Sequence record: OL631257.1
Origin: Escherichia phage ECCR664
Direction: 5' to 3' (one strand)
Length of the DNA: 64,000 bases
Positions within the stretch are counted from its first letter, which is position 1. Each line of letters starts with the position of its first letter. The notes under the pieces are model-generated. The model was not told the origin of the DNA. It saw only the letters and a list, made by a program, of their open reading frames with translations, and ran no database searches. The position numbers were made by a program, and so were the translations under genes. Below, piece by piece: positions 51,101 to 63,423 of this stretch.

Positions 51101-51925
51101 TTATCCAAGATTTTCTTTAATCAAAAATGGGTCGGAATTAAACGCCATTAAACTTTGAGTGATTAATCCCTTAAATGGCCCATCAATAAATTCCATTTTG
51201 AAATGCGGAATACTAGTCATCAACCGTGCATTAGGAGCAGTACAAAGAACCTGCTGACCTGCGAACGGACCTTTAGTCAAACGATATCGTTTAGGTTTAA
51301 AATGGTAGATCTCGTAATTTTCTACAAGAGCCCTTTTATTGCATACTGGACTGTTATAACAATACTCAAAAACTTCAATAGTGGTCATCATTGCATTCCA
51401 ATCACAAAAATTGAGGACGAGCAGTACCGCCTATGCAATATTTGCTTTTGCAGCAGTGCTGTACTGATTTAATATGGACATTGTAAATCTTATCCATATC
51501 AGGAGCTTTAATAGGCTCGTCAATTATGTATAGAATACGAGAAAGCGTTAATCCACGGAATTTAGAACCTTCATTGCCAATAAAACTACGGACAGAATCA
51601 GTAAATAAACGGAATCGAATATCATCGCTAGAATAACGAGAAAATTCTTTTTAATGTTGCCAGCAGAAATTTTAGCATAAGCTGAAGTATTAGAAAGAAC
51701 AATAACTGTTCCATCGTCGTGCAGCCAATTAGCAGCAAAATTAGTTACTGCAGTGGATTTACCTGATTGTCTGCCACCGTCTAAACGAAGTGTACAGTAC
51801 TGCTTGAGTATGTCTTCAAATGGTGGGACATAACCATTCTTACAAATTTCTTCTACTCTAGCATCAGAATGGTGTGTAAAAGCATTCATCAGGGATAGAT
51901 AAGGTCCAGTTAAAAATGTTTTCAT
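51101..51925 (-). CDS. P-loop NTPase-like protein; apparent frameshift(s)
   Basis: ORF 51548..51973 (MKTFLTGPY ... LDGGRQSGKSTAVTNFA) plus ORF 51101..51391; junction not resolved. Confidence 0.35.
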
Positions 51926-52165
51926 TTTGTTCTCTCTAAGTTTGGGCCATTCCATGGCACATGAATTGTCCATTTCTGTATTTACCCATTACCGCACTTG
52001 GGCTCGACCTTATTACAGGTTGGCGGGAATCCCTCATAGAATCATGAGGTCCAGCTTGTTCCCATGTTATTTGAATGTAAATATTTTTGCCTTAATACTT
52101 ATACCAGTGTGGCTTCATTAAAATTTTTTCATCGAGTCATTTTACCTCTCCAAGTAATTATGATT

Positions 52166-52195
52166 ATACTATCACAATTCTAGGAGAAAGTAAAC
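52166..52195 (-). promoter_or_regulatory. T4 early-type promoter with unusually long leader
   Basis: Minus strand GTTTAC - about 18 nt - TAGTAT(AAT); the next ATG with a good fit is at 51925, leaving a structured leader of about 230 nt. Confidence 0.4.
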
Positions 52196-52197
52196 TG

Positions 52198-52500
52198 TTA
52201 TTTACCTTTAATTACTTTAGCTGCTTCGATAGCCGCTTGCTGAAGGTCATCCATAGACATACCGAATTTAGAAGCAAAGTTATCAATTTTCTTTTCAACA
52301 GCATTCAAAGGCTTGGCCTGTTTACCTTCATTAGCGCCAGGAAGAGCGAGAATACGCTCTTTGTCAATATAAAGGCTTACAAGTTTCTTACGGTCTTTAT
52401 CGGACAAATCGTGAAATGAATGGGCCTTTTTATTTATAGCGGCTTCTAATTTACCTGCACTCACTCGCGCTTCAGTAATAAATTCTTGATATGTTTTCAT
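52198..52500 (-). CDS. internal protein (capsid-targeted; IPII/IPIII-like)
   Basis: 100 aa; N-terminal capsid targeting sequence MKTYQEFITEAR, as in T4 internal proteins (MKTYQEFIAEA). Confidence 0.55.
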   Translation of the reverse strand: MKTYQEFITEARVSAGKLEAAINKKAHSFHDLSDKDRKKLVSLYIDKERILALPGANEGKQAKPLNAVEKKIDNFASKFGMSMDDLQQAAIEAAKVIKGK

Positions 52501-52587
52501 TTTTGTTTCCTTGTTTGTTTTGATAGAGTAATTATACCATATTAATACTTAAGCGTAAACTGTTTAAGCTTTACCATCGCAACCTTT

Positions 52588-53004
52588 TTCCTTAGTAAAT
52601 TGATTTACCATAGTATTTGTACCAAGTAGGACGTTGAGCAATTTTTTCATCTAAACGAGCTTGACTTATCGCAATGGACGCTTCGGTCGGGACATAATTA
52701 TTACGAAATTCGGCAGGGATGTCGGAAATATCTTGGACAGTCGTGTCCTTGATTTTGAAACCACGTTTCAAGCATTCAGCGATTAGCTCGATTTGACGTA
52801 AACGTAAAAATTCGAGTTTGTCGTAAAGAATGTTACATGACCTGTGCCTAAGATAAATGTCGGGGAGATTTTAAAATCCTTTACACGTTTACCGTTTTGA
52901 ACATGTTTACGGACTGCACCAAATATGCGTGGTAATTCACGATACTCAGCCATAAGATGTTGGTCGGTCAGTTCAGAAACAAGTGTTAAATTGATACGAG
53001 TCAT
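52588..53004 (-). CDS. denV: endonuclease V (pyrimidine-dimer DNA glycosylase) DenV; apparent frameshift
   Basis: [55 protein letters not shown] matches T4 DenV as recalled; frame lost after about 70 aa. Confidence 0.85.
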
Positions 53005-53031
53005 AATTTCCTCCAAGTAGTTGATGAATGT

Positions 53032-53061
53032 ATAGTATCAAAACCCTTGGAGGAAGTAAAC
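53032..53061 (-). promoter_or_regulatory. T4 early-type promoter upstream of denV
   Basis: Minus strand GTTTAC - 18 nt - TACTAT. Confidence 0.5.
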
Positions 53062-53062
53062 A

Positions 53063-53344
53063 CTATTTTTCTGAAGCGCCTGAAATATATTTTTCAAGAC
53101 GTTGTTTCATCAGCGAGCCGTTCTTAGCGATTTCTTCCGGTTTATCACACATACGCAACAAGGCTTCAAGCTTAACGATATCACTGGTGCGCTCAAATTT
53201 GCGAGTATCTATCTTACTAGCAAGTTCAGAAATACGTGCTAATAGACTTTCAGCTTCAACCAAAGCTGCACCTAGCTTAGTTGCAAATGTGTCAGTAGCT
53301 TCGTTAAGAATAGATTCTGATAAAAATTCACTATATGTTTTCAT
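53063..53344 (-). CDS. internal protein (capsid-targeted)
   Basis: ORF 53063..53359; internal start [10 protein letters not shown] resembles the T4 IP capsid targeting sequence. Confidence 0.5.
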
Positions 53345-53829
53345 ATATACGCTTTCCAAGTTCCTGTTTTAAATGTTGAGATTACGCGTTTCGCGCGATT
53401 AGGTGTCTGACGATACCATTTAGATTGGGCTAGATTTACTGCCGCTTCATCCCAACGTTTCTGTTGAAGCATACGAAGAGAATTAGTAAAACCGGCGACG
53501 CCTGCTACTCCCATTTGGAAGACCATATTGACCAATGCACATCGACGAACCGCGTCTAAAGAATCATACACCGGTTTAAGTTTAGCATTACCCAAGATTC
53601 CGCGAACGGCTTTATCAACATCTTCATTAAATAGCTTTTCAGCCTCATCAAGGGTAATTGTACCGTTACATTTACGGCCGACCATTCTGTCAAGTTCAGC
53701 TTTAGCTACGGCTAAAGACGGGTTCTTTGTTACCAAATGGCCTATGCCAATAGTCCAAAAGCCTTCGGTGTCTTTGTATAAAGACAGTCTAAGACCTTCG
53801 TCATTACGAAGCATTTCAAATATATTCAT
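53341..53829 (-). CDS. e: endolysin (T4 lysozyme), gene e
   Basis: [37 protein letters not shown] ... RCALINMVFQMG ... [21 protein letters not shown] matches T4 lysozyme as recalled. Confidence 0.9.
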
Positions 53830-53832
53830 AAT

Positions 53833-53854
53833 ACCTCCCACGTTTATAGGAGGT
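53833..53854 (-). promoter_or_regulatory. RBS-sequestering hairpin at the lysozyme start
   Basis: ACCTCC (53833..53838) pairs with GGAGGT (53849..53854); on the minus strand the GGAGGT Shine-Dalgarno lies 3 nt before the ATG and forms the 3' arm; loop contains TATAAACG (late-promoter-like). Confidence 0.5.
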
Positions 53855-53863
53855 ATTTATTAC

Positions 53864-54322
53864 TTATAGGAGGGTAGTGAGCACCTTATATAATGATTTG
53901 CCCATTACATATTCCCATTGAGAAGGTTTAATTAAAGCGAATGCATCAAATTCAGGAATCTGACGTCCGTCTGGGAATGTATGATAGGAATTACAAACAC
54001 TGTTTCTGAATTGCTCGTGCTCTACAGGGATGGTATATAGGAACAGATGAATATTCTTATTGTCTGAGTAATGATGTTCACCTAGGTCTTTCAGGAAGGC
54101 AGGGTCATATTGTGTAAACCCAGTTTCTTCTTCGCATTCACGAATAGCGGCTTCAATAGGAGATTCGCCAGGTTCGACACGGCCTTTAGGAATATCCCAC
54201 CGATGAGCTAAAGAACCTTTAGGACGAGAACCAGTTACACGTCCCATGAATAATTCTTTATCTTTTGTCATGAAGATAATACCGGCTGATAGTTCTTTCA
54301 CTTTATTTTTCTTACTCATCAT
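53864..54322 (-). CDS. nudE: Nudix hydrolase NudE
   Basis: 152 aa; Nudix box GRVEPGESPIEAAIRECEEETG (G-x5-E-x7-REUxEExGU). Confidence 0.75.
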   Translation of the reverse strand: MMSKKNKVKELSAGIIFMTKDKELFMGRVTGSRPKGSLAHRWDIPKGRVEPGESPIEAAIRECEEETGFTQYDPAFLKDLGEHHYSDNKNIHLFLYTIPVEHEQFRNSVCNSYHTFPDGRQIPEFDAFALIKPSQWEYVMGKSLYKVLTTLL

Positions 54323-54343
54323 CTCGGTCCCATGATTTGGCCA

Positions 54344-54562
54344 TTAATTCGGACATAAATTCTTCAATACGCGTTTCTTTAGATGGACTTTCACTATTAG
54401 AGACCGCGAGTTTGTAATCTGCAATAGGACGGAACAAATCAAGGTCCATATTAAGATCGTCTTTGATTTTTCTTCTGACACATCTTTATCATATGTGTAC
54501 AGATAACTATCACACGATTCTGATTTAATGTAAATTGCTATACTCATCTCAAATTCCTGCAT
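54344..54562 (-). CDS. hypothetical protein (72 aa)
   Basis: ORF only. Confidence 0.3.
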   Translation of the reverse strand: MQEFEMSIAIYIKSESCDSYLYTYDKDVSEEKSKTILIWTLICSVLLQITNSRSLIVKVHLKKRVLKNLCPN

Positions 54563-60985: not shown

Positions 60986-61032
60986 TTTGTTTTCCTCTTG
61001 ATTTGATGTGATTACTATAACATAAACTTACT

Positions 61033-61196
61033 TAGATGTAAATTATTTCAACGTCACCTTTAGCGGCTTTATAACCTTCAGCCCAAGATACAACAGAGTT
61101 TTTATCTGAGGATTCAAATTCAGGCATTGGACTTTCACCAATATTCACACAGTATGTTTCTTCATTTTCATCGAACCAAATAATTAAAGTAGTCAT
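61033..61196 (-). CDS. small hypothetical protein (about 54 aa)
   Basis: Not in ORF track; MTTLIIWFDENEETYCVNIGESPMPEFESSDKNSVVSWAEGYKAAKGDVE... Confidence 0.3.
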
Positions 61197-61215
61197 TTTG
61201 TTTACTCCTTTGTAG

Positions 61216-61245
61216 TTGATAAGTCTATAGTATCACCATCCTTGG
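61216..61245 (-). promoter_or_regulatory. early-type promoter
   Basis: Minus strand ATGTAC - spacer containing CCAAGGATGG - TACTAT. Confidence 0.45.
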
Positions 61246-61277
61246 TGCTTGTACATCATTATTTTAATTTTTCCAAC

Positions 61278-61567
61278 TTAACAACTTGTAGTATCCTTCA
61301 TTCGTACGTGGTTTATCCCAAAAATACTAATATATGATTCGCTGTCAATAGAAGTCGCCGGGTTTTTCTCTACCGTAAGACCTTCACTTTCCAGCCATTC
61401 AATAGTATTTGCGCATAAATCAGAAGAACACCTCATCGGGAACCGGCAAGATTTTTCACCTTTAGCTGCAGTGTTATACATCTTTTCTAAAATACGCTTT
61501 TGCACGTTTTTAAAAATAGTTTCAGCAGATTCTTCAGATTTTTATTCAGTTCAGTGTAAAGACTCAT
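61278..61567 (-). CDS. hypothetical protein; apparent frameshift
   Basis: ATG at 61567 (MSLYTELNK...) joins ORF 61278..61505. Confidence 0.3.
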
Positions 61568-61594
61568 ACTATTCTCCTCATGTTTTAATAGGAC

Positions 61595-61624
61595 TATAGT
61601 AACACATCCAGGGAAGAAGTAAAC
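61595..61624 (-). promoter_or_regulatory. T4 early-type promoter
   Basis: Minus strand GTTTAC - 18 nt - TACTAT. Confidence 0.5.
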
Positions 61625-61646
61625 AACTTTTTCAGTAAGTTATAGA

Positions 61647-61671
61647 CCCCTAAAGGGGCCCGAAGGTCCCC
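61647..61671 (-). terminator. rho-independent terminator
   Basis: Hairpin GGGGCC-CGAA-GGTCCC(C) followed on the minus strand by UUUAGGGG; sister element at 43231..43257. Confidence 0.55.
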
Positions 61672-61679
61672 ATTCTTTA

Positions 61680-62295
61680 CTTACGAGTTTTTGCATACTG
61701 AGCAGCGTCAGCAGCCAAACGACCTGCCTGACGAAGTTTTTCTTTAATCGCATCGTGAAGTGGTTGAGTATACTTCAAACCTTCGATAGTCAAATAAAGA
61801 CGATAAAGGTCTGGGGTATCAAGGTTGTTGATATGTTGGCCATTACGAAGACTGTTGAATTCACGAACGAGTGAAGATGTATCGGATTCAATATCACGAA
61901 CAAGCGAAGATAGTTGTTTATATTTTTTTCCAGGCTAGAAGTATCAAACTTAAGAGCAGGAGCTTTAGGAGTTGCTTTTACTTCCGGCTTAGGCTCAGGT
62001 TTTGCTTTAGGGGCCGCAGGTTTAGGAACGGTAGGAGCAGGTTTTACTTTAGGCGAACCCGATTTAGCAGAAACACCACCACTAACAATATCTTTGAATG
62101 CTTTAGAAGCTCTGTAATATTCTTTTGGGTGGAAGTGTCGATACCGTACATGGCTTGAACGTTTTTGAAAAACTCTGTACTAGTTTTTGTACCAGAAATA
62201 GCATCGTAAGCAGCTTGCCATTTCTCTTTTGTCATACGTACACCGGCTTCGGTGATTACTTCCGTTTCGGCTAAAAATTCATTAAAAGTATACAT
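61680..62295 (-). CDS. internal-protein-like capsid-targeted protein with Pro/Ala/Lys-rich linker; apparent frameshift
   Basis: ORF 62044..62295 starts MYTFNEFLAETEV (capsid-targeting-sequence-like); continues in another frame through PKVKPAPTVPKPAAPKAKPEPKPEVKATPKAP to a structured C-terminus; late promoter upstream. Confidence 0.45.
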
Positions 62296-62330
62296 TGATG
62301 GTCCTTAGAAAGTGGGTTTATTGTTTACTA

Positions 62331-62338
62331 TATTTATA
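62331..62338 (-). promoter_or_regulatory. T4-type late promoter (TATAAATA)
   Basis: Plus tatttata about 36 nt upstream of the ATG at 62295, abutting the terminator U-run. Confidence 0.55.
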
Positions 62339-62339
62339 C

Positions 62340-62367
62340 AAAAAGCCCCAACCTTTCGGAAGGGGCT
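62340..62367 (-). terminator. rho-independent terminator closing the tRNA/small-RNA transcription unit
   Basis: Same hairpin as at 46383..46404 followed on the minus strand by UUUUU. Confidence 0.6.
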
Positions 62368-62369
62368 AT

Positions 62370-62665
62370 ATACCTTGTCGGGGTTTCCACCTACTAAGGC
62401 AAGTGTTTGTACGAAACGCCGGGATTCGAACCCGGTTATTAAGCAGTTGACGCTACTCAATATTTTTAAAGGCCATATCTCGACCATATCCGAACGTTCC
62501 GTCAAAAACGCTACTCGGCTTACGGCAAAGATATTTCCTCGAATCGATAATTCTGTGCGCCGTTTCTGCTGTGATGTAAGGGGATATTAACGAATCATAA
62601 AGATTTATTAAGACCAGTCCTTACTCAGGGAACATCAGTCCGACGACTTGCCGGTAGCGACCCGG
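62370..62665 (-). ncRNA. candidate stable small RNA(s) with tRNA-like 3' T-arm (T4 rnaC/rnaD position)
   Basis: About 290 nt with no credible ORF, between a tRNA-adjacent ORF and the terminator; 3' part contains CCGGGTTCGAATCCCGG (T-stem/loop) but no complete cloverleaf could be drawn. Confidence 0.35.
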
Positions 62666-62669
62666 CTTC

Positions 62670-63014
62670 TTATTTTGACATATCATCAATTTGTTCTCTA
62701 CGTCTACGCCATAGATTAATTACTTCATCAACACATTCGGCGTTTGATATATGACGGCAATAATATAATGATTCGCGTTTCTGGAACCGATGTTGCAATG
62801 GGATTTCGTTTAAAAGGTCTTTACGGTCAAAGTATTCAAAACTAGTTAACCCAGAACGGTTTTTAAGGAACTTCCAATGACCAAATTCATTTTGAACATA
62901 GACGTAATCGGCATGCTGATACAGCGAATTAATTAACCTATCGGAAATAACTGTTTCACGTTCGTTAAAATAAAACGTTAAATCATGAACTACCAGATAA
63001 ACATTGCCTTTCAT
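62670..63014 (-). CDS. hypothetical protein inside the tRNA region
   Basis: ORF 62670..63062 uses a TTG that overlaps tRNA-Arg; likely start ATG 63014 with RBS GAGGAAA (MKGNVYLVVHD...); no GIY-YIG or HNH motif. Confidence 0.35.
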   Translation of the reverse strand: MKGNVYLVVHDLTFYFNERETVISDRLINSLYQHADYVYVQNEFGHWKFLKNRSGLTSFEYFDRKDLLNEIPLQHRFQKRESLYYCRHISNAECVDEVINLWRRRREQIDDMSK

Positions 63015-63032
63015 ATTTTCCTCACTTAAAGT

Positions 63033-63109
<77 letters not shown>

Positions 63110-63115
63110 AATATA

Positions 63116-63189
63116 TGACCCAGACCAGATTCGAACTGGTAACCTTTCCCTTATGAGGGGACTGCTGCTAACCATTGAGCTACAGGGCC
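63116..63189 (-). tRNA. tRNA with CAT anticodon (Ile2/Met-type); irregular D-arm
   Basis: GGCCCTGTAGCTCAATGGTTAGCAGCAGTCCCCTCATAAGGGAAAGGTTACCAGTTCGAATCTGGTCTGGGTCA: T-arm ACCAG-TTCGAAT-CTGGT and anticodon loop CTCATAA are clear; D-stem 3' strand reads GCAG instead of GAGC and the acceptor has one mismatch, so possibly a sequence error or a degenerate gene. Confidence 0.55.
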
Positions 63190-63423
63190 TAAATAACTTT
63201 CTATTATGAAAGGCACTTTAGAGCACCTTTGGTAATAGAGGATATGAATTAATAATAACACATAATTCTTAAAGCAAATCAACCATTTTAACGGTCGGCA
63301 AAACGATTTCTTCTTCAATATAAGCAAATTCGACACGTTCAACTACACGCAAGAAATCGTAATCGTAGTATTCAGAAGCGTAGCCAAGAATATCAATAAG
63401 ACCTTGAGATATCTCATCGCCTT

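Follow-up and report, generated by a model that had tools for sequence, protein, structure and literature searches.

The question raised by this locus is whether three genes of Escherichia phage ECCR664 (OL631257.1), located in the 64,000-nucleotide stretch of DNA analyzed here (the window), encode internal proteins that are packaged in the phage head and injected into the next host. In the T4 system, a capsid targeting sequence (CTS) formed by the first ~10 residues attaches such a protein to the scaffolding core during prohead assembly, and the prohead protease gp21 then cuts after the Glu of an (L/I)-x-E motif to free the mature protein within the head. The mature internal protein is embedded in the packaged DNA and is ejected with it into the next host. 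The three genes, designated IP-A, IP-B, and the third gene, all lie on the minus strand, and the reading favored here, with a probability of about 0.65, is that they are cargo genes of the T-even capsid-targeting system. Nucleotide identity to its relatives places the source of the window in Mosigvirus, among the T-even coliphages related to RB69, JS09, and HX01. The region 51500-54400 shares 98.8% identity with vB_EcoM-ZQ3 (ZQ3) and 96-98% with HX01, JS09, and others, and the region 61000-63200 shares 95-97% identity with the LF82 phages, JS09, and HX01.

Mutational work on the CTS, which has the consensus MKTYQEFIAE, has defined its determinants as an aromatic residue at position 4, Phe at position 7, an aliphatic residue at position 8, and Glu at position 10; targeting depends on positions 4 and 7, and processing on positions 8 and 10 (PMC9026906). 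IP-A, IP-B, and the third protein all carry an aromatic residue at position 4, Phe at position 7, Ile or Leu at position 8, and Glu at position 10. Judged from sequence, each also has a gp21 motif near the N-terminus, (L/I)-x-E followed by a small residue. With the cut marked by a slash, the predicted sites are ITE/A at residue 10 of IP-B, LSE/S at residue 10 and LNE/A at residue 15 of IP-A, and LAE/T at residue 10 and ITE/A at residue 16 of the third protein. All 64 kb were scanned in six frames with two CTS patterns, M[KY]T[YF]x[EQ]F[ILV]x[ED] (strict) and MxxYFxxF[ILV]xE (loose). Exactly three matches were found, each beginning at the first Met of an open reading frame (ORF). Shuffled windows gave 0 matches for the strict pattern and 0.095 for the loose pattern, and chance therefore does not account for the three CTS starts.

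In the initial annotation, two ORFs starting with MKTY(Q/S)EF(I/L) were proposed to be internal-protein genes with a CTS on either side of denV. This proposal is borne out: IP-B (52198-52500) and IP-A (53063-53344) are both found on the minus strand with denV in between, and homology places them as an IPII orthologue and a member of the ip5 family (phrog_3499), respectively. The IP-B product is 100 amino acids long and starts MKTYQEFITE, with the CTS encoded at 52471-52500. Its assignment as the IPII orthologue, made by sequence comparison, follows from 93% identity to T4 IPII over all 100 amino acids and from alignment of residues 1-100 to the 100-position profile phrog_7857, 'internal virion protein' (E 4.5e-55). 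Cleavage at ITE/A is predicted to yield a 90-residue mature form of 9.8 kDa with a pI of 9.7. T4 IPII has the same length, CTS, and cleavage site and is likewise encoded in a region next to denV and e; the gene order differs, being e - IP-A - denV - ipII here and e - ipIII - ipII - denV in T4. The closest approach to direct evidence for IP-B in virions comes by analogy from the Klebsiella Jiaodavirus ValerieMcCarty04. In liquid chromatography-tandem mass spectrometry (LC-MS/MS) of its CsCl-purified virions, WKM80648.1 gave 26 peptide-spectrum matches and the adjoining CTS protein WKM80649.1 gave 66 (PMC13119998). WKM80648.1 is identical to IP-B at 99 of 100 residues, the sole difference being Q5K. 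The DNA of the ipII cassette (52154-52504) shares 97.7% identity with that of ValerieMcCarty04 (L011:1635-1985), compared with 67-79% for the flanking genes, which argues that this cassette moved between genera recently. As a separate observation, a perfect copy of the late promoter motif TATAAATA occurs within the ipII coding sequence (52431-52438, minus strand, codons 21-24) and may be either an internal late promoter serving downstream genes or a chance match.

The IP-A product, of 93 amino acids, is assigned on sequence grounds to the ip5 family of internal head proteins. Its match to phrog_3499, 'internal head protein', has an E value of 1.2e-46 and covers profile positions 1-85 of 85, and IP-A is 48-51% identical over about 84 residues to the 'ip5' of T2, PP01, and AR1 (tblastn). 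The ip5 proteins of these phages share with IP-A the CTS and a similar small size; IP-A differs in adjoining e, unlike the position of the listed ip5 genes. Proteins with 99% or more identity to IP-A occur in 132 phage records; many of these already carry the annotation 'internal head protein', and many phages so annotated have an exact (100%) match. Of the two candidate cleavage sites, LSE at residue 10 and LNE at residue 15, variants without Glu10 retain LNE/A (P0033, MKTYNEFLTVTTLNE/A; RB69 p127, MKTYMNFYQNLSLNE/A), and the mature N-terminus is thus probably Ala16. The resulting mature form is predicted to comprise about 78 amino acids (8.6 kDa, pI 8.1). In an AlphaFold2 (AF2) model, IP-A is all-helical with three helices (predicted local distance difference test score, pLDDT, of 73), and a Foldseek search returned no informative structural neighbor in the PDB. 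A literature search for ip5 yielded no experiments on its function or on its copy number in virions. The stop codon of e and the start codon of IP-A, read from the sequence, overlap as ATGA (53341-53344, minus strand), which suggests that IP-A is translationally coupled to, and co-transcribed with, the late gene e.

The third gene requires correction before its product can be compared. The initial annotation had placed a third IP-like gene at 61680-62295; its start at 62295, with MYTFNEFLAE, holds, and the rest does not, as the interval is not an open frame and contains two 1-nucleotide (nt) deletions. In the window, 83 codons are open (62044-62295). Relative to HX01 and ZQ3, single bases are missing at two places, after 62129 and, within an A-run, after 61929, and relative to HX01 an in-frame 6 nt is also missing after 62006. 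With both single-base deletions restored, the gene occupies 61677-62295 on the minus strand, with its true stop codon at 61677-61679, and encodes 206 amino acids with the N-terminus MYTFNEFLAETEVITE/AG. The intact protein of relatives is 206-208 amino acids long (HX01, 208; ZQ3, 206).

Alignment of 50.2-64 kb of the window with HX01, ZQ3, and NHEP29 revealed about twenty single-base deletions, mostly in homopolymer runs and in coding and non-coding sequence alike. Examples are found at 51114, 51410, 51651, 52824, 54470, 55246, 55775, 60766, 61543, 61929, 62129, 62344, and 63500, and the deletions break up denV, vs.8, the third gene, and several other ORFs. Given this many like deletions, the frameshifts in the window are most likely sequencing artefacts; the assembly seems to under-call homopolymer runs systematically, and the deletions are not taken as biology. 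Those in the third gene are most likely homopolymer errors. Programmed frameshifting in the third gene was considered and rejected, since similar single-base deletions, mostly in homopolymer runs, occur throughout the window. It is very improbable that the frameshifts are real and that this phage carries the third gene and denV as true pseudogenes. This alternative draws on the two 1-nt deletions in the third gene and the one in denV, which are found in comparison with every relative examined; against it, the same kind of deletion recurs about twenty times over 14 kb in conserved genes and non-coding elements alike, and the genes are intact in the closest relatives (ZQ3, HX01, and the LF82 phages). 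At the same locus in RB69, a divergent member (L008:13429-13991) is represented in RefSeq by two overlapping ORFs, RB69ORF149c and ORF148c, a split that points to a frameshift or sequencing error there too.

The third protein belongs to phrog_2280 (E 1.1e-57), a family with the listed function 'unknown'. Matches to phrog_2280 occur in 130-138 records of the phage collection, and the product is a 'hypothetical protein' in every record listed or inspected among the 138 matching phage records. A profile search of 1.8 billion representative proteins returned 14 clusters at E <= 0.001, twelve of which are clear family members, and it yielded no informative relative. The traced phrog_2280 members all come from T4-like phages (Mosigvirus, Dhakavirus, Winklervirus, Karamvirus, Tegunavirus, Jiaodavirus, and Marfavirus). 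At each of the seven loci inspected, their gene directly follows the tRNA/rnaC cluster, and in RB69 and PG7, where e.8 is annotated, it directly precedes e.8; it is absent from T4. In the AF2 model of the third protein (pLDDT 71), a helical N-terminal domain (residues ~19-74) is joined through a disordered Pro/Lys/Ala-rich linker (residues 75-112) to a helical C-terminal domain (residues 113-208).

The N-terminus of this family is CTS-like. The motif M-x(1,2)-[YF]-x-[EDQ]-[FI]-[ILV]-x-[EG] is kept in 17 of 18 phrog_2280 members, and an [LIV]xE/[AGS] site is found within 18 residues, again in 17 of 18. Members from Dhakavirus start MKTYNEFLNES, and that of RB69 starts MKTYAEFLTEA. This peptide is kept in proteins with a swapped C-terminal domain (P0024, P0026, and VMC04_131) and in proteins with a swapped N-terminal domain (P0027, P0029, and fHe-Yen9-01 gp154). 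Because it persists while both domains behind it are exchanged, the peptide behaves as a portable signal. The third protein would thus consist of a CTS-like peptide fused via the Pro/Lys/Ala-rich linker to exchangeable helical domains, and it may be loaded into the prohead and cleaved at ITE/A, which is predicted to leave a protein of 190 residues (21.1 kDa, pI 9.8). Loading into proheads through the N-terminus is given about an even chance, and retention and injection a somewhat lower one. In fHe-Yen9-01, gp153 (L009:1380-1916) lies directly after gp154 and has the CTS-like start MLEYSEFLKE, so the third-gene locus can hold two CTS-like genes in tandem.

Among the T4 internal proteins, IPIII* (183 residues, 20.4 kDa, pI 9.65) is close to the predicted mature third protein and has a CTS-type N-terminus. 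A weak profile match to IPIII covers residues 1-25 of the third protein (hhalign probability 27%), and past residue 25 no similarity is detectable by BLASTP or hhalign. The two also differ in location, the third gene following rnaC and ipIII following e, and in the two-domain helical architecture and Pro/Lys/Ala linker of the third protein. No ipIII is found in this phage. T4 IPI resembles the third protein in a CTS with Phe at position 4 (MKTF) and in cleavage further downstream (ITE/A, residue 19).

The initial annotation also assigned a late promoter to the third gene, and an exact T4-type late promoter, TATAAATA, is indeed found at 62331-62338 on the minus strand, ending 35 nt before the ATG. 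Five other copies of this motif occur on the minus strand in the whole window. The promoter is located 35-43 nt before the ATG in HX01, ZQ3, PG7, fHe-Yen9-01, and ValerieMcCarty04, and it is kept in four genera (Mosigvirus, Karamvirus, Tegunavirus, and Jiaodavirus); Marfa has the variant CATAAATA, and RB69 has a match with one mismatch. Just before the promoter, a terminator-like hairpin followed by a T-run (AGCCCCTTCCGAAAGGTTGGGGCTTTTT, 62340-62367, minus strand) ends the rnaC unit. On the 3' side of the gene, a weak, terminator-like G+C-rich hairpin is present at 61655-61670 (minus strand; the scan reports the stem on the plus strand), with a comparable hairpin in the homologous loci. Beyond it, the next gene has an early promoter-like sequence, GTTTAC...TACTAT. 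From this layout of terminator, TATAAATA, gene, and hairpin, the third gene is read as a self-contained late unit. In T4 the rnaC terminator hairpin is kept, but no promoter or gene directly follows; instead, ~200 nt of unrelated sequence precede the e.8 early promoter.

Several observations weigh against the assignment of the three genes as capsid-targeted cargo. When the whole T4 genome was scanned with the same patterns, ipII, ipIII, and gene 61.1 were found. The last of these encodes a 54-residue protein starting MKTFKEFIKE from an early-region gene (NC_000866, start 19130, minus strand), and the CTS pattern alone is thus no guarantee of packaging. Promoter placement is a second point. IP-A has no promoter of its own and no perfect late promoter directly upstream. 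For ipII, likewise, no perfect late promoter is found directly upstream, and the one site within ~60 nt is early-type: a sigma-70 promoter-like sequence at 52529-52559 (minus strand), directly 5' of the gene, with TTTACG, a 17-nt spacer, TATAAT, and an extended TG, which scores 10/12 in a consensus scan as a consensus match only. Third, the C-terminal domain of the third protein is 65-76% identical across four lineages, a level of conservation that suggests a maintained function more than an effector in an arms race. Fourth, comparisons of the three proteins gave no indication of an activity: Pfam and NCBIfam returned sub-threshold noise for all of them, sequence searches against solved structures yielded no significant match, and Foldseek with the third-protein model found nothing in the PDB and nothing in BFVD apart from its own family.

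The remaining point against this assignment comes from the virion proteome of ValerieMcCarty04, the one phage for which phrog_2280 members were checked in this way. Its family member, VMC04_131, has no row in the virion LC-MS/MS table (PMC13119998), although this table gives 26 and 66 matches for the two internal proteins and even contains spurious matches for the neighbors of VMC04_131, which itself has many good tryptic peptides. VMC04_131 shares the N-terminal domain and linker of the third protein, and its C-terminal domain is different and its N-terminus one residue shorter; because of these two differences, its absence weakens the case without deciding it. The literature yielded no accessible virion proteome for Mosigvirus, Dhakavirus, Karamvirus, or Tegunavirus, and no paper naming the RB69 ORFs at the IP or third-gene loci. 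As for gp61.1 itself, it is the only T4 ORF besides ipII and ipIII to match the CTS pattern; either it is packaged and has gone unnoticed, or the motif gives a false positive here.

These results bear directly on a competing explanation, in which the third protein is produced late and does not remain in the mature virion, being either cytoplasmic or brought into the prohead core by its CTS-like peptide and then lost on maturation, as is T4 gp68; its role would then lie in head assembly and not in injection. This explanation is a serious one that falls short of even odds. The zero peptides from VMC04_131, the well-conserved C-terminal domain, and the presence of the motif on T4 gp61.1, a protein without a known capsid role, are all in its favor, and there is precedent in T4 core proteins that can occur in proheads yet not in heads (table, PMC9026906). 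It fits less well with the N-terminal peptide and nearby cleavage site, which persist when domains are exchanged and when identity falls to 26-35%, and with the presence of just three (L/I)xE sites in the third protein, so that scaffold-like degradation to small peptides is not expected. The differing C-terminal domain and shorter N-terminus of the undetected VMC04_131 also count against it.

The gene content of the region between e and vs.8 supports the assignment of IP-A and IP-B to a cargo class in a different way. The set of CTS genes differs among T4, HX01, NHEP29, RB69, and ValerieMcCarty04, and the window has the HX01 set. In T4 the full order is e - ipIII - ipII - denV - vs.8, with ipIII and ipII as the CTS genes. 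In this window and HX01, IP-A, denV, and ipII are found between e and vs.8; in NHEP29, these three are present too, with an 84-residue MYQEFITE protein (L002:2069-2323) encoded between denV and ipII. RB69 has an IP-A-like gene, denV, and three other CTS genes (p123-p125, L008:3450-4444) and lacks ipII, and ValerieMcCarty04 has a gene for a 159-residue CTS protein, followed by ipII. The extra CTS genes of NHEP29 and RB69, absent from the window, indicate cassette gain and loss within one genus. The 40 nt coding for the CTS cross-match among ipII, ipIII, and ipI, and this conserved DNA, together with intergenic sequences, would probably serve as recombination joints. Reviews describe the T-even internal proteins as highly diverse except for the conserved CTS (including PMC9026906, citing Repoila et al. 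1994), and the initial annotation called them hypervariable. For the proteins themselves this description does not apply, as IPII is 93-99% identical across Tequatrovirus, Mosigvirus, and Jiaodavirus and IP-A at least 99% identical in its 132 records; what varies at this locus is the choice of cassettes and not the sequence of any one of them.

What the cargo does after injection is a separate question. In the literature, IPI is the T4 internal protein with a defined anti-restriction target, inhibiting the type IV nuclease GmrSD, and IPIII is needed by T4 on strain ECOR17, in the cytoplasm, against an unidentified system. IPII has no known role even in T4 (PMC9026906). The general description of T4 internal proteins as injected anti-restriction factors, from which the initial annotation started, is therefore too broad: this activity has been shown for IPI alone. 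Beyond the CTS, none of IP-A, IP-B, and the third protein resembles IPI; the alignments are confined to the CTS region, at E values no better than 0.02 in a nine-sequence database. Synteny with HX01 and RB69 places the ipI-locus genes of this phage outside the window, past its end. Accordingly, 'injected anti-defence proteins' is the standard working hypothesis for the class and is not specifically supported by the sequence of these genes. Any of the three proteins might neutralize an immediate host defense; alternatively, it might bind or charge-neutralize packaged DNA or aid head assembly.

The last two of these roles correspond to a broader alternative, that the internal proteins here are mainly basic, DNA-associated or assembly-assisting head components rather than specific nuclease inhibitors. 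Binding of the T4 internal proteins to DNA at low salt has been described, as has slower head assembly in IPIII mutants (PMC9026906). The predicted mature forms in this phage are all basic (pI 8.1-9.8), the third protein has a Pro/Lys/Ala-rich linker that might bind DNA, and the conservation of IPII across three genera (93-99%) points the same way. Set against this are the inhibition of GmrSD by IPI and the cytoplasmic requirement for IPIII on ECOR17, and the cassette turnover and inter-genus transfer at the locus fit accessory, host-dependent functions. On balance, the alternative is considered unlikely. Also less likely than not is a more specific extension of the cargo assignment, in which phrog_2280 comprises unrecognized modular internal head proteins of the sampled T4-like genera other than Tequatrovirus. 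In such a scheme, the CTS and linker would deliver exchangeable helical effector domains into the capsid and then the host, in the place taken by IPIII in T4, and the anti-defense or host-takeover activities would differ with the domain combination.

The genes surrounding IP-A and IP-B follow the order nudE - e - IP-A - denV - IP-B - vs.8 in the direction of transcription. On the minus strand, nudE is located at 53864-54322, the lysozyme gene e at 53341-53829, and denV, encoding the UV-repair enzyme endonuclease V, at about 52592-53004, the last placed by alignment with the denV of HX01 and NHEP29 and by the RefSeq annotation of HX01. Compared with these two phages, denV in the window lacks one nucleotide of a T-run near 52824-52827, which splits the gene. 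Upstream of the third gene, also on the minus strand, are homologues of the T4 stable RNAs rnaC (62410-62547, 97.8% identical) and rnaD (62555-62673, 85%), neither of which had an Rfam match at the gathering score. A 'tRNA-Stop (tta)' called by ARAGORN at 62409-62502 was considered as a suppressor tRNA and rejected, as it is part of the rnaC homologue.

Taken together, IP-A and IP-B are ordinary, already annotated members of the internal head protein class and add nothing new to it. The third gene is, from its sequence, a plausible new member and a modest new candidate, and it offers a testable annotation for phrog_2280, a family so far called 'hypothetical'. Of all phage proteins, internal proteins arrive first in the host cytoplasm. 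As IPI is the only member of the T4 set with a known target, a catalogue of CTS cargo is a useful shortlist of candidate early anti-defense factors. Finally, the retention of the N-terminal peptide while the domains behind it are exchanged provides independent comparative support for the CTS as a portable address tag.

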